A stretch of 53,566 nucleotides of DNA, filler included, from Jimgerdemannia flammicorona (taxonomy: Eukaryota), in the NCBI GenBank assembly GCA_003990765.1. It is 3 parts of 3 records of this genome, joined end to end, with 100 filler letters (N's around TTAATTAATTAA, not from the genome) between each part and the next. Parts side by side here need not be neighbours in the genome. Positions count along the whole stretch, not along the records: positions 17,896 to 35,681 come from RBNJ01002408.1; 2 more parts are not named here. One strand, 5' to 3'. The first letter of the stretch is position 1, and the number at the start of each line of letters is the position of its first letter. Shown piece by piece: positions 17,796 through 50,045 of the stretch. Position numbers and translations under genes: made by a program. Under the pieces are notes generated by a model, which was not told the DNA's origin, ran no database searches, and saw nothing but the letters and a program-made list of their open reading frames with translations.

Positions 17796-17895
17796 NNNNN
17801 NNNNNNNNNNNNNNNNNNNNNNNNNNNNNNNNNNNNNNNTTAATTAATTAANNNNNNNNNNNNNNNNNNNNNNNNNNNNNNNNNNNNNNNNNNNN
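17796..17895. other. assembly gap with artificial TTAATTAATTAA linker
   Basis: N44 + TTAATTAATTAA (17840-17851) + N44. Confidence 0.98.
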
Positions 17896-18320
17896 CAGTC
17901 ACATCTCCAACCCCTACTCCCCCTCCCCCCATACCGACTGAGGCTCCCATGGGGGATCCTCCCTGCCCTCCTTCTGAACCCGGCATCACCTTCCCCAGTC
18001 CCAACCAACCATCCAGCCCTGCGGCCATCTTCCCCATCCTGACCTTGTCGGCAAAGGTCGCCCTCCCCCCACCTCTCTGCCTCAGTCCACCTCTCCCTCC
18101 ACCTCCAGTGCCACCGCCCACCACCGACGGCCCTGGCATCCCCAGACCATCTCCTCGTTTCCTCCCAACCTGCTGCCAGGCGAAGGCACAGCTGCCCCCC
18201 TGGCCGACCTGCCCACCAGTTTGCTCGTTGCTCACCATGTTGATAGTAGCTTTTCACCAAAAACTTCGCAGAAAGTGTTGTCCAAATCTTGTGTCACCTG
18301 AATGTTACCGGTGAAAGGTG
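17896..18320 (-). mobile_element. 5' end (5' UTR and ORF1 start) of a non-LTR element abutting element E pol
   Basis: Starts CACCTTTC with an ATG at 18238. The UTR and GGSxAFxWQxV...DGLGM...FxDxxRxG match the element at 21600. Confidence 0.7.
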
Positions 18321-21300
18321 TCAGAATGTCACACTATCTGATTGAGTTCAAACAACAACACATAGATGAAATACTATAAAATAGAGTTATCAGACCCTCA
18401 TCAGGCCCCTGGGCTTCACAAGCATTATAATATCAAAGAAAGAAGGATGGAGACTAGTTGTAGACTTCAGAAAACTCAACAAGGTTACTATAGAAAATGT
18501 CTACCCACTACCCAGAATTGATGACCTCCTCAATACCCTAGAAAAAGGCAAGTACACGACCACTACTAATCAGTTTCAAGGATTCTAAGTAATACTTATT
18601 GCCAATAATGATATCTGCAAGATGGTCTTTATTATCAGATAAGGATAGTATGAATATCTCCAAATGCTATTTGGACTCTACAATGTGCCAGCCTCATTCC
18701 AGCAAATGATGAACTATATCTACTAGGACCTCATTGAGAGAAATATGCTAGTATATATAGATAATGTAATAATCTACTCTGAGACATTTGAATAATACTT
18801 GTAAGACCTCTATGAAGTATTTGACACTATCTGAAACTCAGAACTCAGACTTAATGCCAAGAAGTATTTCTTTGGAAAACACCAAGTTGAATATCTGAAA
18901 TATATAGTTTCAGCCCAGAGAACCTACACTGACCCATGTAAGGTGGAGAAAGTCAAGAATTATCCTACTCCTACCTTAGCAAAGGAAGCTCTAATCTTTC
19001 TCATATTGGTATCTTACTACCAGCAATTAATTTCAAGATTTTCAGACAAGACAGCTCTACTATACAATATTTCCAAGAAAGACAAACTATTTTACTGGAA
19101 GGAAGAACAACAGAAGTCCTTTGACCTATTCAAGAAGGCTCTCACTGAAGCCCCTGTCTTAGTGTGACCAGACTTTGACAAACTATTCATTCTGGTAACT
19201 AATTTCTCTGCTCTTGGACTTGAATTAATTCTATTCCAGTAAGATAACTAGAAGAAAGAACATGTCATTGAGTAAGCTAGCAAGGCTACTAACAAAACAC
19301 AAGCAAACTATGAAGCTATCAAGCTAGAATATCTTACAGTAGTATAGGCTATAGATCACTTCAGACACTATCTCTTGGGAAAGAGATTTGCTCTCATTAC
19401 TGACCATCAAGCTCTATAATAGTTGTTCAACAAACCAGAACCCTTAGGAATCTTTGCCAGATAGATCATGTCTCTGCAAGAATATCAGTTCACCATTGTC
19501 TACAAGAAAGGTATCAAGAATACCAACATTGATACTCTATTAAGAATCCTACAAACTTAAGAGAAGGAGCCCTCATGAGGGAAGGCTGCTTCCCACCTAT
19601 CTAAATGAACCAAGAACTGTGCCTTACTCTCATCTAAAGCCTATACCACAGCAGCTTCAAGAAAGAAATTCAGCCAGCTCACAAACAGTTCATTTAAAGG
19701 AATTTCAAGAAATTTCAAGAAGATGATGGTGAACTTTGGAGAGGAGAAGGAGATCAATATACCTAAGTTCTATAAGAGATGAAATACTAAAGATACTCAC
19801 AACCAACTATGATCAAAATGTACACTGAGAAATTGGAGTCACTATTACAAAAATTAATAAGAGATACTAGTAGCCAAAAATGAGAAAACAAATTTCAACT
19901 CACATTCAACAATGTGATATCTATTAAAGATACTGACAAAAGCCAATCAATAAAGCACTACTAATATCAATCACAGTATTAGCTGGAGCCTTTCAGAGAC
20001 TAGGAATAGACATTATATATCTTCTACCAATAATATATCAAGAAAGATACTATATTCTCACCATGGAAGATCACCTAACAAAATGGCCTGAAGTCTTTGC
20101 CATTGAGACTACTGATGCTCAGACAATCATTGGGATTTTATAAGATGAAATTTTCAGCTACCATGGGGTTTCCAAAGAAATCATCACAGACCAAGGCCAA
20201 GAATTTGTCAACAAAGCCATAAAGACCTTTGCAAGCAACTTCAAGATCAAACTGTACCCAACAATAGTCTACCACCTACAAGCCAATAGACTTACTGAAT
20301 AAATGAACCAGACCATCAAGTGAGGCTTCAGCAAAACTAGAGATTAGCTAAACTGAGACATATTCCTTCCAGCAATCCTATTCAGTATCTATACTTTAAA
20401 GATAACTACTACCCAACAAATACCTTTTTATTTGGTGTATAGCTAAGAAGCACAAGACTCTGCTGAACCAATCCAGTTGGATTTGACAAAATGAGACACT
20501 GAAGAGATCACTCAATTATACAAAGTATGCCAATAAGCATAAGGATTTATCACCAAAGCACAAGTATGGCAAAAGAAGTATTATGACCACAAAGCTGACC
20601 TAGAATCTCTACTTATTAGACAACAAGTCTTAGTATATCACATAATTGTAAAAGGAAACTAGAGCACCAAACTTGAACTGAAATGAAAAGAACCTTATCT
20701 TATACATCAAGTATTTATGAACCATACCTACCAACTCAAGACCTTAGATAGAGTTATACTCAAGAATAGAATACACCACAACCATATAAGATCTTACTAC
20801 TTAAAGAAAGCAAAACACATTTGAATAATTCCAATTACCTCATCTATATCATCTCTATTAAAGAATGATGGACACTTTATTTGGAACTCAAGAAAGTCAA
20901 CAATATCAAAACCAGTCTCAAGTCCATCTGCATGACAGATAATAAGCTACTAGAAATTGCCTCAGATTATAGGAAATACTATGTCTGAGAGGTTCAAACC
21001 CCCAGCCACAACAATGGGAGTCCTTGCCTTAGACCAGGATGGCCAGTCCTCACAAATGTACCAAAAGTACAAAAAAAAGAGAACTAAGACCTGCTATTTC
21101 TATATAACCACTACTATTAAGGACAGCTCTAATTTTGCAAGAAGCAGATGTGACAATATCTTTGAAATTGGTGACATCAGAATCTGAAGACTGCTTAGAC
21201 TTAGCAAGCCACTAGTTATAAGTTATGACTCAACTCTGACTCATCTTGATTGTAAGATGATCTGCAACTGATTCATGATGACTCATAATAACTTCAGCAG

Positions 21301-21599
21301 TACTACTCAAGTCAGATAACCCTATACTCTGGACCAAAAGAGCAGACCCTCAAGATATAAAGGAAGTATTAAGAGAAAGAGGACAAGGCATCAATTACAA
21401 AGTTCACTACAAAACAAAATACCTGACATCTGCCAAATAGTAAGGTCAAGGAGTCACCCAGATTCATCAGTCTAAGAATAAATATCTCTAATATCAAGAG
21501 GACAATGAGGCTGCATACAAGAAGGATCTCTAGTCTGAACATCTATATAAGAGACCCCTACCACTATACCCTCAACTACCAGAAAATGGAGATAAGAAT
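18321..21599 (+). mobile_element. pol: Ty3/gypsy element 'E': RT-RH-IN, post-IN module, start of probable 3' LTR
   Basis: SGPWAS, LVVDFRKLN, YPLPRIDD, VYIDNV, LITDHQAL, LTKWPE, TDQGQEF and YHLQAN motifs with many stops. Purine tract AAGAAGCAGA followed by TGTGAC at 21149. Confidence 0.88.
21419..21599 (+). pseudogene. N-terminal remnant of the accessory ORF in the probable LTR of E
   Basis: (M)PDICQIVRSRSH..IKRTMRLHTRRISSLNIYIRDPYHYTLNYQKMEIRI aligns to A (MPTACQTSRSRNH..IRRAMGTCSRRTPSIHLGIADPYHFILYYHEMETRI) with one frameshift. TATAAAG at ~21356. Truncated by a LINE. Confidence 0.8.
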
Positions 21600-23345
21600 C
21601 ACCTTTCTCTGCTACAATTCACGTTACACACACTTTTACAACACACTTTAAAGTCGTTTATTGGAGAAAGGTATTAAGGCAATGTCAACCAGCAAGCAAG
21701 TAGATGCACATACTAGGTCAGGTGGATCTGAGGCCTTCAACTGGCAATATGTCAGACAAAGAGATGGGCTTGGGATGGGGTCTTTTGGTGGTCTGAGTGG
21801 GTAAGGCAGCTCAGGCAGTGGAAGTGGTGCTGGTGGTGGAGCTGAAGAGCAGGCAGGGAGGAGCTTTACAGACACATTGAGGGATGGTAGTTGGCTGGTG
21901 GGACCTCAGGGTGGGCAGGCTGGAGGGAAGGAGAAGCAGAAGATTGGGGAAGCTGGAGGAGCTGGAGGAGCTGGAGGAGCTGGAGGAGCTGGACCTCAGC
22001 TGATGGGTTGTAGGACTGGTGGGATGACTGCTGGAAGTAGTGATGGGACTGCTGCTGGTGGCATGACTAAGAATCTGAAAAAAAATTCAGATGTAACTGT
22101 TGATGGTGGGGCTGGGCAGATGGGCCCAAAGTGGAAGGGGGACCTGGCTGATGGTGTGACAAGGCTAGCAGTGGCAATATTACTCAAGAAGTCGATTTTG
22201 GAGTTTGTGGCTACCTTGTGCTTCCAGGGCTTGGTAGTGACAGCAAGGATGGTCCTGGGGCTTATCTCACAGCAGATGGCTGGAGCAGCCTTGATGAAGT
22301 TTCTGAAGGGGCTGGAGGGAGTTGAGGTGAGCTTTGAGAAGGCAGGCCCACTAGATGAGGCTCTGAAGACTGGAGTGGTAGTCAGAGAAGTTGTGGTCCC
22401 TATGGTGTGCTGCCTTAGGTGAGACCCTAGGGTGGTACAGTTGCCAGTAAAGAGGGTACCTATGGTGACAAAGGCTGAGACTAGGAGGAGGGTGGAGGAG
22501 GTGATGGCAGAGTATAGCAATATGGTGGATATCGGCTTTTAGATGTAGGAGGAGACCACTGTTAGGAAGGTAATATTAATGTCAGGATTAGACTGGCTGG
22601 GAGAGAGGCCACAGAGAAGATGAGTGACTGGCCCTCAGTATTGATGTGGGGGGCATTTGTCTGTAAGGTGTTGAGGGTGAAGGGGAGTGAAGAGGAGGAG
22701 GACTTGTTGGAAGCACTGGAGGAGTTGAGTGATGTGGTCGAGCAGTGGGTGAAAGTCTGGAAGCTATATGAGAAGTTGATGTACCTGGAGATTATTGATG
22801 GGAAGTATATTTGTACTGACAAGAGGCAGTGGGAGAGGGCTCAAGGACGTAAGAGGCAGCAGAAGCTGCTGGCAAGCATGTAAGGTAGGGCAAAGATGAA
22901 GGCTGGGGGCACTGGGAAGTCTGAGGGTATAGAGGTGAGTATCTGGGCTAATGAGAGTGGAAGCAATGAGAAGGAGAAAATGAGAGGAGCTGAGAAGGTA
23001 CCACACAAGGACCCGTTCACTGATGGCACATTTGAAGTATGGGACCTGGTCATAGAGAACACTCCCCCTCTAATCAGGTCAGGTCCAGCAGCTAGGGGTC
23101 AGATAGAGGGGGATGTGTTGATGAAGAGTGCTCAGAGGGTTCACTTTGGGGTTTCTGATGTAACAAAAGGTAGTTGAGTGGTTGCAGTTGGTAAGGATGA
23201 GCTGGTGGATGTCCTGGAGGAGGGGTGGGATAAGACTGCCAGTGTAGGGGCAGACACTATAATGCTTGATACAGGGAGGCTGGGGATTCCAGGAGGGAAG
23301 GAGGTGGGGAACCTGCTATAGATGAGCAAGATGATGGATAACTTT
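21600..23345 (+). mobile_element. L1/Tx1-like non-LTR element: 5' UTR and degenerate ORF1, 3' part missing
   Basis: CACCTTTC 5' end and ATG at 21682. A Gly-rich N-terminus precedes an RRM-like VEVSFE..DEALKTGVVVREVVVPM..VQLPVKRVPM..EEVMAEY segment resembling L1/Tx1 ORF1. Confidence 0.6.
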
Positions 23346-26300
23346 ACAGCTCTCCCAGACAGACCATAGCAAGAAAGGGTTTGGATCAACCAACAAACCT
23401 CTCAGTCAAAAGGTCTCAACTATGAAGGAAGATGATGAAAACTAGTACAAGAGAATTGTAGATGATTATGTACTATGTGGATGATGCCCTTATTCTATCT
23501 GAATATACTGCATAGAATATATTGGTAAATGCCTTGCATGTCTCTCCAAAGTTTTCAAAATTCAATCTGAGAAGTGCTAAGTCCAATAGATGAGAAGCCC
23601 AAACAAGACCACCCTCCTTATGAAGGATGGGGAGAAACTGACTTTGAGGAGACTGACAGCAATTGGGACAATAATGAGGAGAAATTGCTTAACTCCATCA
23701 AGAAGGAGGACAGTTGCATCAAGTTTACAGGCCAAGTCCACAGACAGAATGTCAATATCTTACTGGATAGCAGTGCTACTGGAAACTATATCAGTACCAA
23801 GACTACCAAGAGAATTGGAGCCTGAAGCAGACCAGCCACTAAGAAAAGAAGTGTTACCTTTAGTAATGATAAGACTGTACCACTGACCAAGATCTGCAAA
23901 GATCTCTTGCTTAAGATTGGCAAATATCAAGAGAAGTTAGACTTCAGTATTATAGACCTTCTAGGATGAGACATTATCCTAGAAAAAGCCTAGCTGACCC
24001 AGCATAACCCAGACATTAACTAGAGGACTAATGAGGTTAATCTGACCCATGAAGGCAGAAAGATCACCCTGACACCCCAGAAATATACTAACTATTAAGG
24101 AATCGAAATCATCTCTGCCATCCAAAAGAAGAGACTCTCTTGAAAAAAAGGAAACACCTACTTCATCTGCACTATACAAGAAGTCACTGAAGCTACAAGT
24201 AGCTCAATTCCAACAGAAGCTCAAGAACTGTTTGAAGAATTTCAAGATGTATTTTAAGACCCTTAAGGACTTCCACCCAAGTGCCAAATCCAACATGGAA
24301 TTGATCTTATTCCAGAATCTGAACCCCCATTCAAGAGTATCTACCAACTGGCCCAATCTGAACTCAAGACCCTCAAGGATGAGTTGACCAAACTACTGGC
24401 CCAAGGATATATTGAACCCAGCTGCTCTCTATTTGGAGCCCCCATTCTGTTTGTCAAGAAGAAGGATGGCTCTCTGCAAATATATATTGACTACAGAGCT
24501 CTCAATAAGATCACCATCAAGAACTGGTATGCCTTGCCTAGGATTGATGAATTATTGCATCAAATCTTTAAGGCCAAGACCTTTTCTCTACTAGACTTGT
24601 GAAATGGCTACCACCAGATTCTCATTGATGAAAAGGACATTGAAAAGACAGCTTTCTGAATGTGGTTTAAATACTACCAGTTCCAAGTCATGCCTTTTGG
24701 TTTGACCAATGCACCAGCAATATTCCAGTATCTAATAAATGACATCTTTGGACCATTCCTCAATATCTGTGTCCTTGTGTACATTGATGATATACTAATC
24801 TACAGTGAAATAGTAGAGTTACACTACACCCATCTTAGATAGGTACTGACCCTTCTGTGGAAACACCAGCTCTATGCTAAGATGAGCAAGTGCAAGTTCT
24901 ACCAAGGCCAGATTGAGTATCTAAGACATATCATCTCTGCTGAAGGTATTAATGTAGACCCCTGAAAGATATCAGCTCTTAAGGATATTTCTATCCCCAT
25001 TACCCTCAAGCTACTCCAGTGCTTTCTGGGTATTGCTGGTTACTACTGAAGGTTTATCCAAGGATACTCTGCCATTGCAGTCCCACTGACCAGCCTGGCT
25101 TACAAAGAAGTAAATATCAAGACTGAATGAACCCCTGAATATATCCAGGCTATGGACTATCTCAAGAGACTCCTTACCAAAGCCCCAGTACTAATTGCAC
25201 CTGACTCTACTAGGCTATTCACTCTGACTACAGATGCCTCTGACATTGTCATTGAGATAGTGCTCAGTCAAGAAGATTGCCCAGTAGCCTACCTTTCCCA
25301 AAAGCTCAAGCCAGCTAAGACCCGGTATACCACCCATGAGAAGGAACTCCTGGCCATTGTTACTGCACTCCAGAAATAGCGCCATTTCTTCCTAAGACAA
25401 CCATTTGTGGCCTACACTGATCACTATACTCTGCGGTATATTTATATATAGTCCATGCTGACCTACAGACAAGTCTGTTGGATGGAAATCATTGCCAACT
25501 TTGATATAGAAATCAAGTATATCTCAGGCAAAACCAACCAAGTGGCTGATGGTTTCTCCAGATACATAGAAGATGAACTTGTCTTCATGGTCAAGATAAT
25601 TGGAGACCTTACCCAGATGATCAAGGATGGCTACTAGCAAGACAGCCCCCTGATGAATTTCCTTCAATTCTGTCAAGACCCAGAGGCTGAGGTCCCAGAA
25701 CTCATGAGGCAAATGTCCAAGAGATTCACTTACTATGATGGACTTATCTACAGGGACCATGACAGAATAGTTGTACCCAACAATGCTACTCTGTGGCTCA
25801 AGATCATGCAGGAACTCCATGATACTCCTGCAGCAGGACACTTTGGTTTCAAGAAGACCTACAATCTCCTCTCAAGAGAATTCTACTGGCCAAGATGACC
25901 AAGGATATCAAAGACTTTGTGGCCTCATATAAGATATACCAAAGGTTCAAAAGTGATAACAAGCTACCAGCAAGACTTCTGCAACCACTATCAATCCTAA
26001 GTCATAACTGGGATCAGATTGCAATATACTTTATTGTTCAGCTCCCCAAGACCAAGGCAGGATGGGATGCCATTGTGGTATTTGTGGACTGCCTAAGCAA
26101 ACAAACCCATTTTGCACCCACCAAGACCACTGCTACAGCACCAGAGATTGCTGAGATTTTCCTCAATCAAGTATTCAGACTACATGGCATGCCTATCACT
26201 ATTGTATCTGACTGAGATGCCAAGTTTACAAGCAACTTCTGAAAGACATTCTTCTCTCTCTATAGAACCAAGCTGAAGTTCTCTACTGCCTACCACCCCC

Positions 26301-26899
26301 AGACTGATGGTCAAACTGAGTGAACCAATAGGACCCTCAAGCAGATGCTTAGCATCTTCTGCTGTTACAAGCAGAATGATTGGGACAAGTACCTAGCCCA
26401 TGTTGAGTTTTTCTACAATAATAGCCAGCAAACCTCTATAAAGAAGACCCCATTCTTCCTGAACCATGGTCAACACCCAAGGACCCCAAGTACTACTGCG
26501 AAATCAGCAGTTCCAGTAGTCCAAGATCTAGCTGAGACCATTTCTGATCTGATCCAAATGACAAGAGATGCTCTCATAGAAGCACAGGACTACCGGACCA
26601 AGTATGCAAACTTGAAGTGAAGAGAAGTCTCCTACAACATTGGTGACATGGTCATGCTTAGGACAGACCACCTCCACCCAGACACCCTGGTAAAATAACT
26701 AGCCAAGAAACTCCATACTAGAAGAATTAGACTATACAAGATTGTGCAAAAAGTCAGAGAAGTCAACTATAAGTTGCAACTTCCCCACAATATCTTAGTA
26801 CACTCAGTATTCCATATCAGCCAATTGGTGGACTACAATGAGAACCCATTTCCCAAGTATACAGTTCCACCACTACCCTCAATTAGGATTAATGATCAT

Positions 26900-27065
26900 G
26901 AGGAATTCAAAATTGAGAAAGTACTTGACCACAAGATCTGAAAATACTCCAAAACAGTCAAGCAGTTTTTCCTCATCAAGTGGAAGAGTTACCCCACCCA
27001 TGATACTACCTGGGAAAAAGAAGAAGCTCTAGAGAATACATGCAAAGCCCTCCAGGACTATATGG
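26900..27065 (+). pseudogene. integrase C-terminal chromodomain
   Basis: EEFKIEKVLDHK...FLIKWKSYPTHDTTWEKEEALEN. Confidence 0.88.
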
Positions 27066-27748
27066 AAACACTTACCCCCCAGCAAAGGAAGGAGCTGCAG
27101 CTCTAAAAATTAGAGTACATAGAAAATAGGAGGATACTATATATTCTTATTTGAAATATATAATACTGAATATTGCAGAAAAAGAAACACTATAATTAAT
27201 TAATGAGAAGATACTCAGGCAAAGGACAATCTAGCATAGTATAGCAAAATACATTTGAATAACTCTATTTTATATCATCTGTGTTATCTCTACTGGATGA
27301 TGATGGATACTTCATATAGAACTTAGGAAACCCAATGATGTTGAAAACAATCTAAGCCCATCCAAATGACAGATATTATTACTAAGAATTGCCTTAGATT
27401 ACAAGAAATACTATTTCTGAGAGGGTCGAACCCCCAGCTGTGATAGTGGGAGCCCTTGCCCTAGATAAGGATGGCCAGTTCTCACAAATGTGCCAACTAG
27501 ACCAAAAAAAAAAGAACCAAGATCTGTCAAACCTGTGTAACCACAACTGCAAGTAGTGATATCTTTAAAATCAGGATTTTCACATATGACCAGAACATGC
27601 TCCACTTACAGCAACAGGTCATACATTCTGATAAAAAGCATAATCAAAAGAAGGTTATACCAGACAGGTGGATAAGTATAAATACCCAAGGCAAGAATAC
27701 CCCACAACTCTCATCCCTCTCTTCTCACAAAGAAAAGACAAGATAAGA

Positions 27749-28591
27749 ATGCCTACTACCTACTGCCAAACTACCTGCTATCAAACTGCCCACTGTAGCC
27801 AGCTCCTCCCAAGCCAGGTTGATCACCTATTTGGATATATCCAGGTTGCTATCCAAGGAAGGAACTGCTACTCTGAGGTCCTTAACCTCTCCAGCCTAGA
27901 TCTAGGACAATATGTCCTTGACCACTATGAACTCATCAAAAGAGCCTACCTTGCTACTAGCTGCCTAGAGATCTGGTATAAATATGAAATCAGCCATCAA
28001 CTCCTCTAATATACAAAGGACCTAACTACTGACCAGGTCTCAGACTGAACCCACCTGAACAGGCATAAGTAAAGACTTGCCAAGAAGGTCCATCAAATCA
28101 TGCACCATGCACCCTTTGCAATTCCCAACCTCAACTATATCCAACTGAAGGACTTCCAGAACCTCTCCTTCCCCAAGGTTGACAAGCTAGAAATCATGGT
28201 AGCCCAGGAAGCCAACTCCTGGATTACCCTCAAGTCTACTGACATCAAACTCCACTGGAGCCCCTTTCTGAATGACAATCTAGATCAATGGCTCCAAGGC
28301 CTCTCTGACCTCTTTGAAGGACTACCTATCCAAATGGATATCTCCAGGCATAAGGATCAAGAACCCTACTTGGATGGTCCCAACTGCATCAGGTGGAGAA
28401 CTCCTATACTGACACTCATACCAATGCTAGAACCATTTGCAGACCTCATTGATTTCTCTATCCTGGACAGTGAGTCATCAGCATCCACCCCCCCTGCTAC
28501 TGAAAAAGAAGGCAACAATACTGAGGAAGATTCTTCACCTTTCTCTCCCCTGGTTCTCAATTTCCAAATTAATGAGGATATTGATTTCTAA
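27749..28591 (+). pseudogene. accessory ORF (~280 aa), internal, between pol and PPT of element C
   Basis: One frame with three nonsense codons. YEISHQLL, AKKVHQIMHHAPFAIPNL, DQWLQGLSDLFEG, WRTP, FADLIDF and PLVLNF all match the LTR ORF of A/B. TATAAATA at ~27677. Confidence 0.85.
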
Positions 28592-28602
28592 GGAGGAAAG
28601 AA

Positions 28603-29308
28603 TGTAATAGAATAAATGAGTGAACAGATGAGATGTTACAAGTGATCACATGACCTGACAATGACATCATCATATGATCGAGTATGACATATGATATTAT
28701 AAACATGAATGATACAAACAATACAAATAAATGATATCCAGCTTATCCTCAGTTTTCAGTACTGCGGTATGACACTGCAGTAACCAGTACCACAGTATGG
28801 CACTGCAGCAACTAGTACCACAGTAATTGGCACCACAGTATGGCACTGTAGCAACTAGCATCACAGTAATTGGCACTACAGCAACCAGTGCCACAGCAAT
28901 GCTGATCATTGCCTAGCAATAGATATTGTGATCACAAACCTCACCATAGTTACCAAATATACTTAGTTAGAAATTGTGGACCAACTTGTATAAAGCCCCC
29001 AGTTTCCATCTGAAATAAAGCAGTTTTAGTTCAGTCCTTGATATAAGAATCAAGTCTCCTCCCACCTACACACATTCCCCTGAGTCTTAGTAATAACACC
29101 TAAGTGACTCTAGTGTTTCTGACTAAACTCCAGAAGCCTAACTAACTTCTGCCAGAACTGAGATTGATATATAAATTCCCAAAGACTTAAGTAAATCTAT
29201 TGAATCTGAATTTTAAGGCAAATTCAGTCTGTATATAGCAAAGGACAAGACCCTTGAAAGATAGGGCAAAAGAGAAAATCCTTTGAAAGATAAGACACTG
29301 CCACTACA
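28603..29308 (+). repeat. 3' LTR of element C (~706 bp, no ORF)
   Basis: Follows AGGAGGAAAGAA. Ends are TGTAATAG...CCACTACA, a decayed inverted repeat. TATAAA at ~28990, AATAAA at ~29014, and GGCAC/CAGTA tandem repeats at 28760-28900. Confidence 0.75.
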
Positions 29309-29718
29309 ACTACTTTTAAGTGAGCACTTCCTCAAACTGAAGGCTTCTTAGTATACATTGTATACTAAGTCTCTAAGTAATAGTCTTACTTCCCTAATTA
29401 TCCAAAGGATAAGAGAGGGGTAGAAGTGAGAGGTATTATACTCTACTTGCAGTAGTACTAAATCTACAAGTGTGTCTCCAATTACTACTTCATCTACACT
29501 CTCTTCCTCCTCACTCCACAGACCCCTCCACCTCTCCTTCAGTATTCCCAAGACCTGTTACATACCATGCACCATTTCTCCCTCTGCATCAAGGACTCCA
29601 TCCCATTGATATTGCACCCTCCTAGCCTGGAGGAGTCTTGACAAGTACCTAGTAGGCCTCTTCCCCTCCTCAAGCCCCTGTCACCTCAGTCTGGCTGCCA
29701 TTCCTTTCATATGTATCT

Positions 29719-31793
29719 TGTAAGCGCACAACCTCCAAGCCACCGAAATTACATGTCACCCTCTGAACAAGCCACTGAAATCACATGCGACCTCTGAACA
29801 AATCTGGAAATCATCTGCTTGATCACGAAGCTGAGTCAAACTGAAGTCACAGCACACAAAGCTGAGTCAATATGAAGTCACGGAACACAAGATCTACACA
29901 GACGGAACCTTACCAATCAGGACCAAATGCATATATACTGAGCACCGAGACGCGTCGAATCAGAGAATCAAAACAAACAACAACCACAACTTCCAAACAC
30001 ACAAACATGACCACTGAGATCTACAACTGCATCCGTGCTGACATTTGGAATGCCATTGTCAACTGAGCTACACCCCCTCTGCCCCTCATGAATATCCATA
30101 GCCTAGCACCCCTCTACTTCATGGAAGCCTGATGGAACACCCTGAATATGCTTAGCAAGGTCCACCGAATTGGACAAATCTCAAGCTACTACCAGATCGG
30201 CCATCTCCTAGAAGACATGGTTGAACACCACCATGATACAGACATGACCCAGATGTCTCAACACCAGAAGCTCATCACCCGCAAACATCAAGAACTCTTC
30301 TATGAGTACAACACCTTTATTTCCCGCCTCCAAGTCACTACCAGCGAAATGGTTGCTACCCTGTCCTATGGACAAATCGATGACATGATACAAGAAATCA
30401 ACCACAAGTATCTCGAGTATGTCGAAACCACAGACAGAACCTTCCCACACCCTGATGACCATATCCTGCAAATGCCTCAAGTTGGATATGCCATGAAGGA
30501 CGTCTACGATATAATCCACTTCGACAAAGATGAAGCAGAAGACAATGATCCTTCTGACGCCAACATGACCTCTAGCCAAGGATCTCTGCCAACCCTGATC
30601 ACTCCGCCAACCTTGCCGATGAACTTACAACAGATCATAACTGCATATGAGACTTATTGGGACAATGACCACTGGCACGAATACCAATCCGCATTCACCC
30701 CCGATTACTTCAATTATAATGAAGAGACTGGAGAACACAACCTGTACCTTCAGACAACCCTAGAGACTGAACCAACAATCCCACCACCTGAGTATGAGCG
30801 ACATGAACCACAGCCGCCAGCTTACTACAACCCTGCGACTCATAGTGCTGTAACCTATAGAAGGTACGCAGACAGCGAATCAGATGAAAGCGAAGACAGT
30901 ACACCCATCCTTCGCCCACCAACACCTTATCCAGCATACGAAACAGACGATACTATCCTGTGGGACGGAGATGAAGTCCCAATGTATTACTACCTTAGCC
31001 AATAAGGAGAAGTAATCCGCGAACCACTCTTCCTAGATGACTACTTCATCCGAGATGATGCAATCGATGGTGATGTCATCGAGGACTACCCTGACAGCGC
31101 CTAAACCTATAAATAGTCTAGCAGTCATAGTATAGATAGATTAGCCTTGTATGATGTGACTGTAAACTGACTCAGCAGTCAGACGATCTCTTGACATGTC
31201 AGATCACACTTGTACTACATGACTACATTCCGACTCAGCAAGGCACTTAGTGCTACATCCATATCTAGCATAGTCCAGTTAGCCCCTCACTAGTATAAAT
31301 ACTCCCTTCCCCAGACCTCAGAATCTCAGACTCAAACAGACTTGAACAATCCGAACACAACTCCTGAGCACTTCCCCACAATATCCCTTTACACAACTAC
31401 TCCTAGTATAGCAATATTATGAATAGCGAATAAACCTATTTAATAACCCACAAACTACTCTTAAGTAAATCCACTCCCTGTTAGGTCCTACTCCTAACCC
31501 CCGTCACGAAATTTCCTAATTGGGTATTGTCTGCAGCGATACACCAATTCAACTAAGCTGGTCTTAGTTTCTTGAACTTCCTGAAATATGGAAAATCCTG
31601 AACATCCAGAACTAGTCTGAAAAAGGACTTTGGTTGAGACGTCAACCCGATCTTGAAATCAATAAGCATAGAGGACGTACTCTATACGAAATTGATCTTG
31701 ACCATAAGAAAACGGTCTTCCAGAACATCCAGAATATCCAGAAAACCCTTCCAGAACTAATTAACGGTCACCCAAAAAAGTAACCCTCTTACA
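29719..31793 (+). repeat. putative 5' LTR of D (~2075 bp), containing an ORF
   Basis: TGTAAG...CTTACA perfect 6-bp terminal inverted repeat. CpG content rises at 29719 and the PBS follows. The second LTR is not in the window, so the left boundary is inferred. Confidence 0.7.
30007..31104 (+). pseudogene. divergent homologue of the LTR accessory ORF (~365 codons, three nonsense codons)
   Basis: One frame from ATG 30007, through TGA 30064, TGA 30130 and TAA 31003, to TAA 31104. YYQIGHLL...KLITRKHQELF..FISRL..LSYGQID parallels YEIGNLL...MRTAKKIHQIF..SIPNL..LSSRHIN. Confidence 0.7.
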
Positions 31794-31795
31794 AC

Positions 31796-34700
31796 TTGGT
31801 AGCAGTGGTTTACAATCCAATTCCGCTTCAAGACGCTTCCTCACCCCACTACAAACCCTTCTGCAAATTCCTACAAGTTGATATAAAGCCCAACCTCTGA
31901 ACTGGAATTTATCCTGAACCATCTGACAATCTGGAGAGAATTGAACCTGACATACAAGGACAATTTGACCTCCACACCTGCAACAAGTGGGATAAACTTC
32001 ATTCAAAGAAAGAAGTACTCAAGTTAAACCAGCAAATAGGTGAAACCCTATTCACCGAACTCCTTGCACTACACCCAGCAAGTCAAGACAAAGAAGGTCT
32101 TATCGAAGCCTTCTTTACTCTTCTCAACAAGAGTTTTGTCAGCTCTACAAATCCGAGCGACCTAGGACAACCAGCAGCAGTCTTTCTAGCCTTAGTTCCT
32201 CACAAAGCCCAAGCCTCTGTAGCCAAGTGGCTCAACTCTACCGACTATCACCGTACCAGGACCAAGACCGCCTTATACTACCGATTCCAGAATGGCAAGG
32301 CCCGCCATATTCTTAAAGAAGAAGCAAGAGAAACCCTTCATCAACTACCTGACCCTGAACCTGAAGCAGGCCCTGCTACAGCCCTACCTGAATCTGAAAC
32401 CAATATCGAACCTGAACTTGACTTTGAATTAAGTCCATCTGAAATCAGATATACAACTGATTCTGTCTACTTTGACACCGAGCAAACCCAATTACACGGG
32501 GACCAAACCGAAGAAGAGGAGGAGTATCTCACTGAATTCGATCCCGGATACACCACTGAAGGAGACACACATCCATCAGGACAGAATACACCTACACAGC
32601 AACAAACAGCTATCTATCAAGCCCTCACTCCAGATCCACAACTACTACTCCAGCAACTTACACAGACCCAAAGAACCCCATCACACTCTGCACCAGTACC
32701 TCAAGTAGTACCAGTAACACCACTACCAGCAGTCTAACCGCCTCTAGTAAACAATATGGCGAACCAACAGATTCTAGACCTTACAGCCCAAGTAGCTATA
32801 ATGGCAGCAACCATTACTGCCTTAGCCAAACAGACCCAACCTACCAAAAATCTGAGCCTACCTACCTTCAATGGTACTACACAAGAAGTCCAAAGCTTCA
32901 TTAGTGTAGTTGACACCAACTTTGAAGCCAATCAATGGACCAATGAATGAGTGGCTGACCATGTTCTGACAAATAATCAAGACCACACCCTGGAACAACT
33001 CTTTGCTACTACTACAGCCTATGTCCGCTGAGTTGTTACATTCTTCTGAGGACCTGCCGAAGAATGGTGGCGAACCCTTCCTGAAAAACCCCTCACATGG
33101 GAAACCCGACCTGCAGTAGTTGCTCAGAATGCAGCAAACAATGCCCCAGGATATGGAGCCCATCCTACAGCCCCTAGACTCAAACAACTCATGATTGCTC
33201 AATATCGCAGTGAAACAATGATTGCCGAATCCCGTGAAAAACTCCGCAACCTCAAATTTGATGTACATGGCAAAGAAGAATTCGAAACCTTCTGTACAAA
33301 ACTCGAGTCACTCCTGAACACTGTTGGCCTAGGATATATTGCCAATGATGAAGCACAAAATGGTACAAGAGCAGACCAATTATTCGATGCACTGCCTGAA
33401 TGGCTTACTAGAAAAATCTGAGAACAAGGCCGCCCAGTTGGTTGCAACCACCAACAATGGTGCCTGGCAAGAATCAAGACCATGGTCAAGCGAATCCTAA
33501 CAGCTGGACCAATTCTGCCCTGAAGACAATTCAACAATAAGGAAAAGACTTGGACCAAGAAAGAAGAACCCAAGCATGAAGCATCTCGAGCTCCCTCCAC
33601 ATCCACCTCTTGGACACCCAGAAATCATGAACCCACCCAGCCAAGTACCTTCAAGAAACTTACTGAAGGTGAAAGAAATGAACTTCGAAGAAGCGGAGCA
33701 TGCTTCTACTGCCAAAAGACAGGACATATGGCCAGTGCCTGCCCCAACCGAAAACCCCGAACAGCAACACAAGCAACTGTTACCACTCTGCACCATCTCA
33801 ACAACCTGACCACCAGAACACTAGACTTTGTCAAGTTAAGACAAACTGCTAAGGCCCCAACCAAAGGAAGTCAAAAAGCAGCCGGATATGACCTGAATGC
33901 AGCCGAAGAAGCTACAGTTTCCAACCGAGAAGTCAAACAAGTCTATACAGGAATTAGTATCCAAATCCCTGAAGAACATGTTGGAAGAATATGCTGTCAC
34001 AGCAGCCTAGCGCTGAAAGGACTCTTAGTAGAAGGAGGAGTCATTGACGAAGATTATACAGGCGAAATCATTGTCCTCATCCGAAACCACAGTTGGACAC
34101 CCTTCAAGATCCCTATTGGCTTCTGCATTGCCCAGATCCTGTTTGAAAAAATCGAGTCAACCTTGACAGTCAAGGAAGTCCCTGAACTACTACCCACCAT
34201 CTGAGGATCCAAAAGATTTGGCTCATCGAACAAAGCCCCAGCCCAACCCACTGTGAGCAAAGAAGAACAATTCTATAAGAAGATAGAAGATGGATATGTA
34301 CCAAGTGGCCGATGCCCTCATGGTATTGGAATGTACTCTTCCTGAATGATTGATGATTGCTTCTCTTGTATCAACAAACTGGCTCAAAGAAGAACCAACA
34401 GAAGAAAGACTCCTACAACTGAAATCACCACCATTGGATCGGACAAACTGCTCACCCTTAAGGCTTTTGTCAATGGAGCACCTGTCAAGATTATGATAGA
34501 CAGTGGTACCTCAGGCAATTTCATCAATGAGGAGACAGCCAACAGACTCAAGGTCTTCACCTCCCCAGTACAGCAAACTCAAGCAGTTGCTACAGCTGAT
34601 GGAACCTCACATGTTATTAGAAAGGAAGTCCGCAATCTACCCTTCCGAATTGGCGACTACTGAGTACATGTTACTCTCCAAATTGTACCACTTCCTGATA

Positions 34701-35681
34701 ATGAAATCATCCTTGGGACTCCATGGTTAAAACAAGAGAACCCCCTGATCGATTGGGTAAACCATTCTCTGACCATCAAGAAAGGATGCCACAACTTCAA
34801 ACTGCAAGGTGAAAAGGACCCACTCAACTCTAGTAACCCTGGACCAAAGATCACCCACATCAATAAGCTACAACTCAAGAAATTGGCCAAGAAATGTCCT
34901 CTCTTCGCTATCTCCATCCGACCATCCAAAGGAGAACCTGAGAACTCTGAAGAAGATTTTTCCAAAGTTGACAGCCATGTCAGACCACTACTCTAGAAAT
35001 TCCGAGACATATTTCCAAAGAAGCTTCCGAAAGGCCTACCACTCAAACGAGCAGTAGATCATGCCATCAAAACTATCCCAGATGCCAAACCAGCCTTCAA
35101 GTCAATCTACCACATGTCTCCAAGAGAAATTGATGCACTCAAGAAGGAAATCGACGAACTCCTCGAACAAGGATTCATCAGACCTAGCATATCACCCTAT
35201 GGTGCACCAGTCCTCTTTGTTGTCAAGAAAGGAGGAGACCTACGAATGTGCATTGACTACCACGATCTCAATGAACAGACCATCAAGAACTGTTGCCCAC
35301 TACCGAGGATTGATGAAATATTTGATAGGCTCACCAACCCACAATTCATGAGCTCTTTTAATCTGCGAAATGGTTACTGGCAAATTGCCATGAAAGAAGA
35401 AGACATCTACAAGACAGCTTTCCGAACTCGCTATAGACACTTCGAGTTTCTGGTTATGCCCTTTGGCTTAACTAATGCCCCAGCAACCTTCCAGACACTG
35501 ATGAATACCATTCTGCATCCATACCTGGACAAATTCGTTGTTGTCTACATTGACGACATCCTAGTCTTCAGCAAAACCCTGGAGGAACATCTTGAACACC
35601 TTGAACTAGTACTACTGAAACTCCGAGAAAACAGACTCTTTGCAAAACTCAGCAAGTGCGAATTTCTTCTGAAAGAAATTC
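31796..35681 (+). pseudogene. pol: gag-pol of D in a single frame: N-terminal extension, Gag, CCHC, dUTPase, CPH module, PR, RT
   Basis: LPTFNG, CFYCQKTGHMASAC, AAGYDL/GGVIDEDYTG/FGSS, IDSGTSGNF, SPYGAP and VYIDDILV. All fragments share one frame, and stops are mostly TGA. Confidence 0.92.
31797..31808 (+). promoter_or_regulatory. primer binding site of D, initiator-tRNA-Met-like
   Basis: TGGTAGCAG.. 3 nt after the LTR end, matching a ...CUGCUACCA tRNA-iMet-type 3' end. Confidence 0.75.
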
Positions 35682-35781
35682 NNNNNNNNNNNNNNNNNNN
35701 NNNNNNNNNNNNNNNNNNNNNNNNNTTAATTAATTAANNNNNNNNNNNNNNNNNNNNNNNNNNNNNNNNNNNNNNNNNNNN
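35682..35781. other. assembly gap with artificial TTAATTAATTAA linker
   Basis: N run with linker at 35726-35737. Confidence 0.98.
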
Positions 35782-35889
35782 TTTTCTCGTGGTCGAAATA
35801 CTTCGCGGTGATTTACTGGAGGTAAAATGGTAATAATGACGGGATAACGCTAATATTCGTTGACTAATCTACAATGCTTTCCACCATAG

Positions 35890-36588
35890 GCGTCCGGATA
35901 CGCCATGTTTGGTACTACCACTTTGCAAGAGGTGTGTTTGGCATCTCGCATCATCGAAAAAACAATATACACCCAAATCACAATTCTCACACCTTTTCCC
36001 ATCGGACTATCGCACCTCCGCATCACTGTACCAGATCACGCAAAACCTCGCCCACACCCCTGGTTTCGACCCCATCCTGAACAAGCTCGTCGTCTGGCTC
36101 ATCGCCGTCAACCCCATCGCCAAATATGCTCTCACACTCAACCCAATCAACCTTACCTGGGAGATTGACTTGCTCAGCTGGGACAGCCTCGAGGACTGGT
36201 GCAACTGCGGCCGCGGAAGGCGCACTGCGGTACGCGTCTTGGGCAGGTGCGCCATCAGCGCGCTTGTCGTCACCATTGCGACTATATTCCCCGGCTTCGA
36301 TAGGGTTATGGTGAGTTTGATCGCTGTTCAGGGTTTGGTAGTGGTTGGTCATTGTTGGAGAATTAAAACATGTCATGTCATTGTTCCCATACACAGTCCC
36401 TCCTTGGCGCATTCTACTCCTTCCTTTTCTCGGCCATCTTCCCGCTCGCTTGCCACCTACGCCTATTCGGCCACTCTATTCCTGCCACTCAGCGACTATT
36501 TGAATGGACCTTGATCATTGTCTCGTGCATAATGGCGCTGGGTGGTACTGTGTGGAGCTTCCTCCCACATAGCATTGTGACGAATTGA
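35890..36588 (+). CDS. AVT1: 3' exons of an Aa_trans-family (vacuolar AVT1-like) amino-acid transporter; exons 35890-35931, 36035-36310, 36397-36588
   Basis: GT-AG introns join GYAMFGTTTLQE / ITQNL..WLIAVNPIAKYAL..FPGFDRVM / SLLGAFYSFLFSAIFP..GTVWSFLP*. Confidence 0.85.
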
Positions 36589-36856
36589 GCAATACTTGTA
36601 GCCCATTGAACCTTTTATAGAATGTGTCCAGATCAAGTGGAGTCGGAAACGAAACAAAATTGCGGTGGATCTGTTCAAATCGCTTCGCCCTCTCTTGCCT
36701 GGAATTATACTACTTCGGGGACAATAGTTAGATAAACTCCCCAAATTTGCCGGCCTTTTTCTTGGATATATAAAAATTTCCATCACTCTGTTTTGGTGAT
36801 AACCCCAAGCGTGTACCTACTGAATAGTGATGTTGTAATTAAATATATTGGATCAC

Positions 36857-37208
36857 CTTCGAAATCAGCCATATAAGTGGCGGCACCGCAGTTCAAAGCA
36901 TTGATGACCATCTTCCTATCGACGGGACCCGTGAACTCGACGCGCCTATCTTGAAGGCCGGGCGCGGGTTTGGCGGCCTTCCAGACGTCGTCGTTGCGGA
37001 TGAAGGCGGTTTCGGGCAAAAAGTCGGGGAGCTGGCCGCGGTCGAGCTCCTGCTGTCTGAGGACGCGGCGCTGGAGAAGAGCCTTGCGGGTCGGATTGAA
37101 GGCGCGCTGGAGAGTGGCGAGGAAGTGGAGGGTTTCTTTGGATAGGATCTCGTTCTGAGCGCCCTTGAGGGGGCCGAGGATGGTGACGCCAGGAATGGGA
37201 GACGACAT
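36857..37208 (-). CDS. MLS1: malate synthase, first exon only (~117 aa)
   Basis: [13 protein letters not shown](F)[20 protein letters not shown], followed by a GT donor at 36856. No further exons found before the convergent gene. Confidence 0.88.
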
Positions 37209-38129
37209 GTTTCTTTTTGTATGTGGGGTTAGGAGGGCGGAAAAAGTATTTCGGGTTAATTCAATGGACGAAGGGGATGGAGGTCAAGGAGGAAATGTCG
37301 GATGCATGCGACAAGGGCGCCTTTTCTATGATTAAATTTTTGGCTTCTCTCATAAAAAAAAAAAAAAAAAAAAAAAAAAATTAAAAATATTGGATTGGAC
37401 GGATTTTTCCCAAGCAGGAAATTTAAAAATAAAACCAAAAAGTAAGAGCATTAACGTTTAACATGATATTGGAATTAATACCAAAATAAGTATTACAGTA
37501 TCAACTAATATTTATTATTATAAGTAATTTACATTCTATCTAATTATATTTACATATAAATATAAAAATATATTATACAATAATATTTTCAAATATAGCT
37601 ATAAAAGAAACACATTATATTTAATAAATAATAACAATTTCTATAATTAAAAATACTGTTCTATTTTAATATGAATATATTTAAATATTATTTATAAATA
37701 TTATTTTTAACATATTGGTATTGTGAATAAGTAGAAAAGTATGAAGAAGAGCACTGTTTATTACTCCAGATAGGTTACATATATATTGAAATCAGTGATA
37801 TAATTAAGAGTGATATAGTCATATATAAGCTACATAAGTTACAAATTATCAAGATATAAATAATAAGAATTTCAATAAGATGATATATATATATAAATGT
37901 AAGAATATAATAAACTACAATAAACTAAGCAATAACTACTAATTGACTATAAAAGAACTAAAATAATACTATCTATATACTTAAAATATAAGAAAACATA
38001 GTAAATATATAAGATGTAAATAGTCTCATTGGTGAAAAAACTCATATGTAGAGAAAATAAAATAGACTAGTAAATAACTGTAATATTTGAAGATTGCCTT
38101 GCTGGATATTAGAGTATAGGTAGAAATGC

Positions 38130-40077: not shown

Positions 40078-41623
40078 TGTAACAGTGACCTCAGAATGAT
40101 GTTATCAGCACAAGAGACAGCCTTTCCTTGCAAGCCACTATATCAGAGTATAAGAAGATCATATGGCATAACTCACCTAGGCTACATGATAAGCAATGAT
40201 GACCAACTGTGAGTCATTGGGACCACAATATAAACATCTTGAGGAATATAAAAGAAAGATCAAAGAACCACAATAGCAGCAACTCAACAAGACCCATTAA
40301 TCCCAAAATAGCTCAAAGACTTATCATAAATAAAATATCTGCTGCTTGCTAAACCTCAAGATCAAGAAACCACCAAGGCCTCTCAGTCCAGGAAAGGATG
40401 TTCCAAGACATCTAAAGAGTTATAAGAACCTACATTACAAAGACTCCTAGTATTAACCTGGGTACTGGTGACCCTTATCATTATATTCTCTATTACTGCA
40501 AAATGGAAACAAGAATCATCATTACTATCAAATGCCTTCAGATGTGGCAAGAATACGAAATAGGAAATCTCCTCTGCCAGGAATTCCCTCAAGCTAGTCC
40601 TCAAGAGCTACAAGATGCCACTCCCATAGATATATATGAAATAAGGATAGCCAAGAAGATTTATCAGATCTTCAGGTATGTACCATAGGAGTATCAGACT
40701 TTAGGGATCTGCTAGCCCATTGTATCAATGCACTAGAAGCCATGATAGCTACAGAGGACTAGTTCACTATTACCCTCAATAGTGATGAGATAGAAGAGTT
40801 CTGGTATCCCATCCTTCAGAACAACTCAGATCAGTTTCTGTAAGGATTAATCTCAGCATTCCAAGGCCCCAGCATACAGATTAGACCTCCTCAAGACCCC
40901 ACATTTGTTCCTTATTTTGTGGAAGATAATATCATAGATTAGAGAGCCCCTGCTGACTGAATATAATGATGTCATTGGTAATGACATCATCCTGCATGAT
41001 ATATACAAAATGTGCAACCTATACAACAAGATAGATGAAATATTTGTAGATCTCATCTCCTTTAGCAATGATGAGGATGAAGCCCCCATGGTTCTGAACA
41101 TCCTACTTTAAAGTTCTTAGTAACACTGAATTCTGCTAGCATTCTTTTCCCATGTAATAGCTAATCCTTTCACTGGCATTCTGATCTTGTATGACTCAGA
41201 ATTCTTCCAGCATCCTTTTCCTATATCACTGAATTCTACCAGTACTCTGAACTTGTATAACTATCTATACCAATACTGGAATCTGTACTGACAACTGTAG
41301 TTTTCTATGTTCCAGTATTTTATTTAGTTATTGAAATTTATATTTAGCTTTATATCTTAGCAACCATCAAATTATATTTTATATAAATACCCCTCTTATT
41401 TCCTTCAAAATAAAGTCAGTTCCTCTCAGTGCAATATATACAATTCTTTGCAAGTAATCTAAAGAGATAACAAGACAGTTTAAAGATAAGAAGTTTGAGA
41501 ACTATAAGACCTTGAGAAGGCACTCTAATAAGAACTTACTTATAACAAACTTGAGTTAGTCTAAGAGATATATCTTGAAGAGAATCTGATATATTTGAAG
41601 GACTCAGCAATCACTATGTGACA
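40078..41623 (+). repeat. 5' LTR of B with degenerate accessory ORF (40335-41111)
   Basis: TGTAACAG...TATGTGACA, containing METRIIITIKCLQMWQEYEIGNLL. Confidence 0.92.
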
Positions 41624-41743
41624 ACTTGGTACTTATTGGCTGGTGATTCAAGATGAATCCCTCACTTTTAAGCTGAAAAACAAACAATCATCATAACAAC
41701 TACCCTGACTACAAGAGTCACCTCTGCAAAAATTCAAGATAAG

Positions 41744-46896: not shown

Positions 46897-47208
46897 CAGC
46901 ATGTTCAATAACCAGTAGGCAAATCTGTCCACCATTCTCTAAGGGATATGGCACTAGCAACTACTTATCTGTGAGACTTTCAAAGCCAGAGGAGTTCAAA
47001 CTGTCAACTGATTGATCAAGATCAGAATCAGGCCCTTGCTCTATATAAAGGGAGCAACCCTTCACCATCGTACCAAAATATATAGAGAAGATACCAGTCC
47101 ATAAACACTACTTTTCAACCCCCTGCCAGAGTTTATGGGATCAGTAAATTTTTCAGAACTAGACTAATGAATAAGGATATTTAAGAGGATCTTTATTCAG
47201 GAGAAAGA

Positions 47209-49019: not shown

Positions 49020-49086
<67 letters not shown>

Positions 49087-50041: not shown

Positions 50042-50045
50042 ATAG

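Follow-up and report, generated by a model that had tools for sequence, protein, structure and literature searches.

A selected accessory gene family at the 3' end of Ty3/Gypsy lineages in Jimgerdemannia flammicorona and its possible exchange between them

How does the same accessory gene come to lie at the 3' end of retrotransposons whose reverse transcriptases (RTs) have diverged to 35% identity, and what keeps it there? The question is raised by a stretch of 53,566 nt (the window) from the early-diverging fungus Jimgerdemannia flammicorona (GCA_003990765.1). It consists of three pieces joined by linkers of the form N-TTAATTAATTAA-N at 17796-17895 and 35682-35781, the middle piece (17,896-35,681) being RBNJ01002408.1. 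Five Gypsy-type elements, termed A to E, lie in the window; the middle piece holds the 3' part of a degenerate element E, then the chromovirus C, then the 5' part of D, with E and D both cut at the piece ends. Accessory genes separate complex retroviruses from simple retrotransposons, and to our knowledge they are hardly known in fungal retrotransposons. Here we describe a previously unnamed family of about 270-365 codons that is carried by A, B, C and E and very probably, in its N-terminal domain, by D. Taken together, the data somewhat favor the view that no fewer than four Ty3/Gypsy lineages have this one family at the 3' end, where it is held by selection, and that it has spread by recombination and would encode a nuclear regulator.

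One gene family in diverged Gypsy-type elements

The 3' long terminal repeat (LTR) of element A contains a family open reading frame (ORF) of 273 codons on the minus strand at 977-1798 (frame 977-1855), with its ATG at 1798 and one TAG stop. The copy in the 5' LTR of A (8213-9067, minus strand), which has three stops, an 8-codon deletion and a lost start codon, is 81% identical to it in amino acids. Element B carries, on the plus strand, a copy with stops and two frameshifts in its 5' LTR (40287-41108) and a second copy in its 3' LTR, divided by an insertion into pieces at 47421-47819 and 49118-49526. Both B copies match the A 3'-LTR copy at 50-76% amino acid identity over aligned pieces, with frameshifts and stops. 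The ORF of C (27749-28591, plus strand; three in-frame stops) aligns with that of A by tblastn in a single collinear match, with 93 of 286 residues identical (33%), 10 gap positions in total and E 2e-37 for the window, and the two proteins share conserved termini (start MPT..CQT, end P.VLNF). A fragment in E (21413-21603, plus strand) matches A at E 5e-8 and an intact metagenome copy, L001, at 28 of 39 residues. A/B, C and E carry one protein family.

The carriers of this family are four RT lineages, 35-51% identical, with differing pol layouts. A and B, which are 82% identical over 8 kb, share 81.5% of their RT core, and identity between lineages falls from 50.7% (C-D) through 38.2% (A-E), 37.3% (D-E), 36.7% (C-E) and 35.7% (A-D) to 34.7% (A-C). 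The protease (PR)-RT-RNase H-integrase order of Ty3/Gypsy elements was identified by Pfam in A, B, C and D, and LTR pairs and termini were found in A and B; E is known solely from degenerate tblastn matches to its pol (18383-20800, plus strand; RT, RNase H and integrase to 20380). Domain order by Pfam is PR-dUTPase-RT in A/B and zinc knuckle-dUTPase-PR-RT in D, whose internal part (31901-35681, plus strand, cut by the piece end) contains gag-like ORFs, a zinc knuckle with dUTPase (33524-34201), protease (34346-34660) and RT (34997-35680). The pol of C (23571-27106, plus strand) encodes protease, RT, RNase H, integrase, an SH3-like domain and a chromodomain (26942-27103; PF00385, E 2.5e-12 at 26699-27106), and no dUTPase was found in C by Pfam. 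A chromodomain was sought at the pol ends of A, B and E, in nine read-through frames, and none was found. The original prediction had placed homologues of one accessory gene in A/B, C, E and, more distantly, D; it had described C as a chromovirus, A/B as lacking a chromodomain and the pol regions as strongly different. Each copy proved to be present at its predicted coordinates, a chromodomain was found in C only, and the pol regions differ to the extent given above. As a separate observation, the dUTPase domains occupy different sites in pol, between protease and RT in A (4480-5544) and B (43516-44142) and between zinc knuckle and protease in D (33524-34201).

Intact relatives were recovered from public data. 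The family is rare in public protein sets, which returned 6 matches with the A protein as query; a profile query of 1.84 billion representatives found 7 proteins at E<=1e-3, and a wider profile found 8, one of them new (P0017). Intact public proteins include P0004 (271 aa, A-type), P0011 (214 aa, C-type) and P0012 (342 aa, C-type). A metagenome scan with the family alignment reduced 210 pattern matches to two loci, both on contigs with intact genes: L001 (323 codons, E/P0007-type) and L002 (291 codons, C-type). The same scan with the D alignment gave 339 pattern matches, none of which was confirmed. Among the 20 matches listed for sequencing runs against the window there was no RNA run (best share 0.24).

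Ratios of nonsynonymous to synonymous substitution (dN/dS) are 0.17 for C-L002, 0.18 for A-L001, 0.25 for L001-L002 and 0.29 for A-C, with dS near saturation. Differences between A and B fall at codon positions 35/30/71 in the ORF, which resembles the 16/16/36 of RT, and those between the two LTR copies of A, which split after insertion, at 33/19/34. Furthermore, copies that share 44% of their protein sequence keep frames of 271-342 codons open. Low dN/dS, the third-position excess and the intact copies together establish that the gene is real and under purifying selection; the earlier statement that it is retained by selection holds on the same grounds. Weighing on the other side, stops or frameshifts occur in seven of seven window copies, and the almost exclusively transitional differences among these broken copies distort identities.

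Gene placement and exchange between lineages

In A and B the gene lies inside the LTR. The 3' LTR of A (501-2038, 1538 nt, minus strand) pairs with the 5' LTR (7737-9250, minus strand) at 90.3% identity over 1540 nt; the ORF at 977-1798 is wholly within the former, and its second copy is in the latter. Element B, on the plus strand, is organized likewise, with a 5' LTR at 40078-41624, recognized by LTR pairing and termini, and a 3' LTR at 47209-50042 that is interrupted by a 1.28-kb insertion (47828-49107). Polypurine tract, primer-binding site and TG..CA ends can all be read in the A/B LTR pairs, which start with TGTAAC adjoining a purine run and end with ...TGTGACA abutting ACTTGGT.... The 3' LTR of A begins TATAAC where its 5' copy has TGTAAC, and is preceded by the purine run AGGAAGAAGA. 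Because the polypurine tract of A/B is upstream of the gene, the whole gene falls in U3 and is copied into both LTRs.

The genes of E and D appear to lie inside LTRs as well. Alignment of element E with the A/B LTR starts at the first LTR bases, TGTGAC at 21149 following GCAAGAAGCAGA, and this A-like LTR (21149-21650, plus strand) is cut off near 21650. For D, the predicted 5' LTR (29719-31793, 2075 nt, plus strand) ends with CTTACA at 31793, which is mirrored by a TGTAAG at 29719 that is unique within 29200-31300, and is followed by ACT and a primer-binding-like TGGTAGCAGTGG. The ATG would then lie at a similar depth in each LTR (288 nt in D, 240 nt in A and 270 nt in E). An alternative LTR start or polypurine tract of D at 29403-29432 was rejected because TGTAAG at 29719 mirrors the LTR end. 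That 30-nt near-pure purine run, located between the end of the C LTR and the predicted start of the D LTR, may be a remnant polypurine tract of another element.

The C-type gene, by contrast with those of A/B, is most likely internal and directly 5' of a 706-nt LTR. From the pol stop to the main TATA, poly-A aside, AAGGAGGAAAGAA at 28590-28602 is the one purine run that is perfect; it overlaps the stop codon of the ORF and is followed by TGTAATAG, and both are conserved in L002. The probable 3' LTR (28603-29308, plus strand; 28590-29308 with the tract) starts with TGTAAT, mirroring ACTACA at 29308. With the polypurine tract after the stop codon in C and L002, the gene would be internal, between pol and LTR. 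A start of the C LTR at ~27556 was rejected in favor of 28603, where the purine run is perfect, the terminal inverted repeats are better and the site is conserved in L002. Pairing of 20809-21115 with 27243-27548 as LTRs of C was likewise rejected, since the A/B LTR start is matched in E at 21149 and what the two stretches have in common is a 3' untranslated region (UTR) block upstream of the polypurine tract. A caution for this placement is that the LTR boundaries of C, D and E are each deduced from one LTR copy.

Each gene seems to be supplied with its own signals. A TATA-like motif occurs 63-112 nt upstream of the start in nine of nine copies examined (87 nt before the ATG in A, 72 nt in C, at ~21356 in E), and the D ORF has the motif ATATATAC 76 nt upstream. 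Every copy is upstream of the main TATA and poly(A) signal of its element. Downstream of the gene, the core promoter GTATAAAYACYCC is common to A, B, C, D and L001, with AATAAA 20-25 nt past it in A, B, C and L001. The C LTR contains tandem repeats, a TATA at ~28990 and AATAAA at ~29014, and the D LTR a TATA at ~31293 and AATAAA at ~31430. When whole LTR tails of A, B, C and D were aligned with MAFFT, alignment was poor and the core promoter alone aligned. Tandem repeats of ~35 nt occupy the interval from ORF to main TATA at 840-970, 8076-8206, 28750-28900 and, in L002, 1400-1470. They are of CCAGCAC type in A and of CCACAGTA/GGCACTGCAGCA type in C and L002, and are candidate enhancers or binding sites.

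Evidence for exchange comes from the 3' end of E. In a 307-nt block between pol and the polypurine tract, E and C are 77% identical (z 35), and similarity of E to A is barely detectable (z 2.9). The order is reversed in the first 190 nt of the ORF, where E-A reaches z 18 and E-C only z 3.4. Adding L002 gives the same picture: in the block tail C and E are identical at 81 of 106 positions versus 62 of 105 for C and L002, and over the first 200 nt of the ORF the scores are z 21.7 for C-L002, z 3.5 for C-E and z 22.3 for E-L001. That E is nearer to C in the block and farther from it in a gene 300 nt away is the pattern expected from one recombination event. Copy E is a mosaic of a C-like 3'UTR block and an L001/A-like ORF. 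In addition, ORF/RT path-length ratios vary about tenfold, from 0.6 for A-E and ~1.0 for A-C to 2.2 for A-B and ~6 for C-D.

The block itself is a conserved non-coding sequence located at 20809-21115 in E, 27243-27548 in C (both plus strand) and 1-105 in L002, with weaker similarity at 2075-2390 in A and 46870-47170 in B. It holds a motif resembling a tRNA T-arm, GGTTCAAACCCCCAGC, and could act in cis as an RNA element or be a site of recombination. ARAGORN found no tRNA in the block, and Rfam returned no match to it.

Several points count against exchange. The RT tree separates (C,D) from (E,(A,B)) with support 93/92, and in the approximately unbiased (AU) test the ORF tree did not reject groupings congruent with it (D with C-type, p 0.42; A-type with E-type, p 0.20). 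For the five carriers, the unrooted ORF and RT topologies agree, so exchange rests on branch lengths and one mosaic copy. Moreover, E is a single truncated and degenerate copy in what may be a short-read assembly, and may itself be a chimeric assembly or a nested insertion. Incongruence of ORF and RT phylogenies had been proposed as a check on the idea of an exchangeable module; no significant incongruence was obtained, and the part of that idea which stands is carried by the E mosaic and the uneven ORF/RT divergence, with an ORF tree compatible with RT topology on the negative side. On the whole, we lean towards exchange of the gene between lineages.

Vertical inheritance alone is a possible, though less probable, account of the same data. 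It would have an ancestral Gypsy element with the gene at its 3' end, uneven rates thereafter (fast in D, slow in A/E) and an E copy that is an assembly chimera or nested insertion. The RT and ORF topologies, being without conflict, agree with such descent, and the C-D pair fits the behavior described for rice Retrosat2, where ORF0 outpaces pol under co-descent (PMC3485330). Shared LTR ends, the ACA|ACTTGGT junction of A, B and D and the GTATAAAYACYCC core promoter could also reflect common descent of the 3' end. Vertical descent has difficulty, however, with the position of E relative to C, closer than L002 in the block yet far more distant in the ORF, which rates on the C branch cannot yield. 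It also requires an ORF conserved like the RT core for A-C and far less than RT for C-D, and it must accommodate ~17 members in public protein sets, while 35% RT divergence suggests old lineages.

Under exchange, recombination would have carried the gene and its flanks from one lineage to another, the simplest route being a template switch between co-packaged RNAs as they are reverse-transcribed. The two conserved sequences that flank the gene, the 3'UTR block and the core promoter/R region, could provide crossover sites, and a shift of the polypurine tract would convert an internal gene into an LTR gene. A bolder and rather doubtful version is that a mobile cassette, made up of the block, its own promoter and a transactivator gene, was swapped among diverged Gypsy lineages, and that a polypurine tract shift put this cassette in the LTR.

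Sharing of this kind has a parallel in bdelloid rotifers, where ORF3 types are common to unrelated LTR-retrotransposon lineages and Athena elements (Rodriguez, Kenefick and Arkhipova 2017, PMC5408684). There, too, one accessory ORF type extends across divergent retroelement lineages of one host, dUTPase-bearing lineages are involved, and the pattern is described in terms of modularity and gene sharing (PMC5408684). Rotifer ORF3 products differ in being recognizable enzymes or env-like proteins encoded between pol and LTR (PMC5408684), whereas the fungal protein belongs to no known family and its gene is mostly inside the LTR with its own TATA. In crapaud, a chromovirus of the fungus Podospora, the history of U3 differs from that of the internal region and recombination of co-packaged RNAs is discussed (PMC10787394). 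The variable U3 of crapaud is described as non-coding and the variation as being within one family (PMC10787394), whereas here U3 carries a gene across deep RT lineages. Plant aORFs (PMC7264820) and rice Retrosat2 ORF0 (PMC3485330) are similar as lineage-restricted extra genes that are kept in most copies and evolve faster than pol. The C-type copy would share the classical sense aORF position between pol and 3' LTR if 28590-28602 marks the LTR start, as would L002; A/B differ from the aORF-3S position class in having the ORF inside both LTRs. Plant aORFs are internal, and ORFs in LTRs are not mentioned in the available portions of the review (PMC7264820); ORF0 of Retrosat2 is upstream of gag (PMC3485330). 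Sharing among RT lineages only 35% identical is not described in the accessible text of either source (PMC7264820, PMC3485330).

Protein properties and predicted function

The proteins are acidic (isoelectric point 4.3-4.9), with net charge distributed unevenly between residues 1-60 (0 to +8) and the tail (-15 to -30). The tails evolve rapidly and are particular to each lineage. No membrane segment, a feature of env-like sense aORFs, was found in the five proteins searched, the maximum 19-residue Kyte-Doolittle mean being 0.47-0.83. AlphaFold2 (13 rows) predicted core residues 47-150 to be helical at a predicted local distance difference test score (pLDDT) of 63-80, in a model that is poor overall (mean pLDDT 54).

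Function is the weakest step of the proposed explanation and is drawn from composition. A basic head, a helical core and an acidic-hydrophobic tail would suit a nuclear regulator resembling a retroviral transactivator. Composition and gene layout tentatively suggest a regulator of the element's own promoters with a layout like that of Tas. Foamy-virus Tas/Bel1 is likewise a small 3'-end protein with its own promoter (PMC517496, PMC8670036), and the acidic tail of the fungal protein is compatible with a role at the LTR promoter. The resemblance to Tas/Bel1 is one of layout and composition, without sequence similarity, and DNA binding and activation are putative here. Database searches gave no support for the assignment: Pfam-A gave no family for the A and C proteins and two matches far below cut-off for D (E 0.22 and 0.34), the ESM Atlas held no relative (best feature score 0.83; Atlas own model pLDDT 0.35), Foldseek against PDB found no match at E<=1e-3 (best E 0.6), and a wide VIA-align search found no relative (best Z 3.8).

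A slightly less probable alternative is that the protein is not a transcriptional regulator and instead counters the host, for instance its silencing of repeats, or contributes to particle assembly or to nuclear entry. The TE-versus-host function named in the original prediction is likewise speculative. Selection maintains the gene in several lineages of one host, the fast and lineage-specific tails are as host-interaction surfaces would show, and neither Foldseek nor VIA-align detected a DNA-binding fold, all of which suit such a role. Pulling the other way, no similarity to a known suppressor, Gag or envelope protein was found by Pfam, ESM Atlas, Foldseek or VIA-align, and the protein is without a membrane segment.

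A protein gene inside the LTR, and hence in both LTRs, is known from sag of mouse mammary tumor virus (PMC2191119, PMC2191060). The virus is an animal betaretrovirus and Sag a type II membrane protein (PMC2191119, PMC2191060), whereas the fungal protein lacks a hydrophobic segment and resembles no known protein in sequence or fold by Pfam, Foldseek or VIA-align. Literature on ORFs inside retrotransposon LTRs yielded neither an account of this family nor one of a gene borne in the LTR of a fungal retrotransposon.

One selected gene with its own TATA is thus common to Gypsy lineages down to 35% RT identity. Its location inside the LTR in some lineages and just outside in another offers a natural series for LTR growth and for the acquisition and trade of genes. 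With a whole gene in the LTR, solo LTRs need not be inert. If the proposed regulatory role is correct, each LTR, solo LTRs included, would be a self-contained gene with promoter and terminator, and a regulatory circuit like that of complex retroviruses would have evolved in a fungal retrotransposon. The family is a concrete candidate for a retrotransposon-encoded regulator in an early-diverging fungus.

The D frame and other features of the window

The ORF of D (30007-31104, plus strand) spans 365 codons with two TGA and one TAA in frame, and BLAST found no match between it and the family. A first profile hidden Markov model (HMM), built from window copies only, gave D a marginal 8.2 bits. A 19-row HMM that included database relatives and the two metagenome genes gave 15.7 bits, aligning HMM positions 22-145 with D residues 9-130 at E 2.2e-4 to 3.3e-4 among 864 six-frame windows; D was the sole non-family match in the window, and the best unrelated window scored <=1.7 bits. 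None of 2000 shuffles of D reached this score (best 7.1-8.2 bits), and D retained 13.0-14.2 bits when the weak members P0014-P0016 were removed. By hhalign, an eight-row alignment gave P 0.02 and a later one P 3.2e-4; the latter scored 35.5, and none of 200 column shuffles exceeded 21.1. Here D ranked top of the non-family ORFs (69 ORFs >=100 aa), and reversed D scored 11.2 versus 35.9 for D as read. The score climbed from 27.0 to 35.9 once the frame was read upstream through the two TGA codons, and the relative P0009, which is alone in matching the other two thirds of D, confirms that the frame runs on beyond the TAA as far as 31104.

Working against membership, identity between D and the family is just 14-22%, and the match covers one third of the protein. 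Nonetheless, the profile comparisons make it highly probable that the N-terminal domain of D (~125 residues) is homologous to the family. The search of D with a profile HMM that had been put forward as a check on the original prediction recovered D, over residues 9-130 only (E 2e-4 at Z=864), and the claim of a gene common to four lineages holds with D included through this domain alone. An unrelated orphan gene that occupies the corresponding site of a long LTR, matched by chance or through shared helical composition, is unlikely. It would account for the failure of BLAST, the eight-row hhalign P 0.02, the low identity and the two thirds of D that have no family counterpart, but not readily for a single non-family match well separated from the next window, the absence of any shuffle reaching D, the low score of reversed D or a match that grows on upstream read-through; position, upstream TATA spacing and the acidic tail are also family-like. 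That the frame is no gene at all, being conserved LTR regulatory DNA that stays open by chance, would fit the stops or frameshifts of all seven window copies, but is contradicted by dN/dS of 0.17-0.29, the third-position excess, frames of 271-342 codons open at 44% protein identity and the collinear A-C match over 286 aa with 10 gap positions, and is highly improbable.

Differences between the two LTRs of an element are almost purely transitions (126 versus 1 transversion in A; 203 versus 12 in B), which makes LTR divergence useless as a clock. A CpA/TpG bias was evident between LTRs, with 35 of 70 C/T sites preceding A, a signature resembling repeat-induced point mutation or deamination. The 1.28-kb insertion at 47828-49107, inside the ORF of the B 3' LTR, has a higher G+C content, and its ORFs gave no Pfam match. 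The region from the E LTR remnant to the C protease (21650-23400) is G-rich, with GC skew +0.5 and GC 0.51; it contains long ORFs on both strands with no Pfam match and no similarity to the C LTR, and the gag and 5' LTR of C are not recognizable. Rfam returned no match at E<=1 on 17896-35681. Host gene fragments are present at 36786-37283 (minus strand) and 35864-36511 (plus strand), namely the N-terminal domain of a malate synthase (E 2.4e-21) and a weak match to an amino-acid transporter. AT-rich satellite-like arrays surround element A, one family being inverted (9251-9914 versus 11965-13119), and a second satellite-like array near A (10318-10749) is G-skewed with a period of 12/18 nt.

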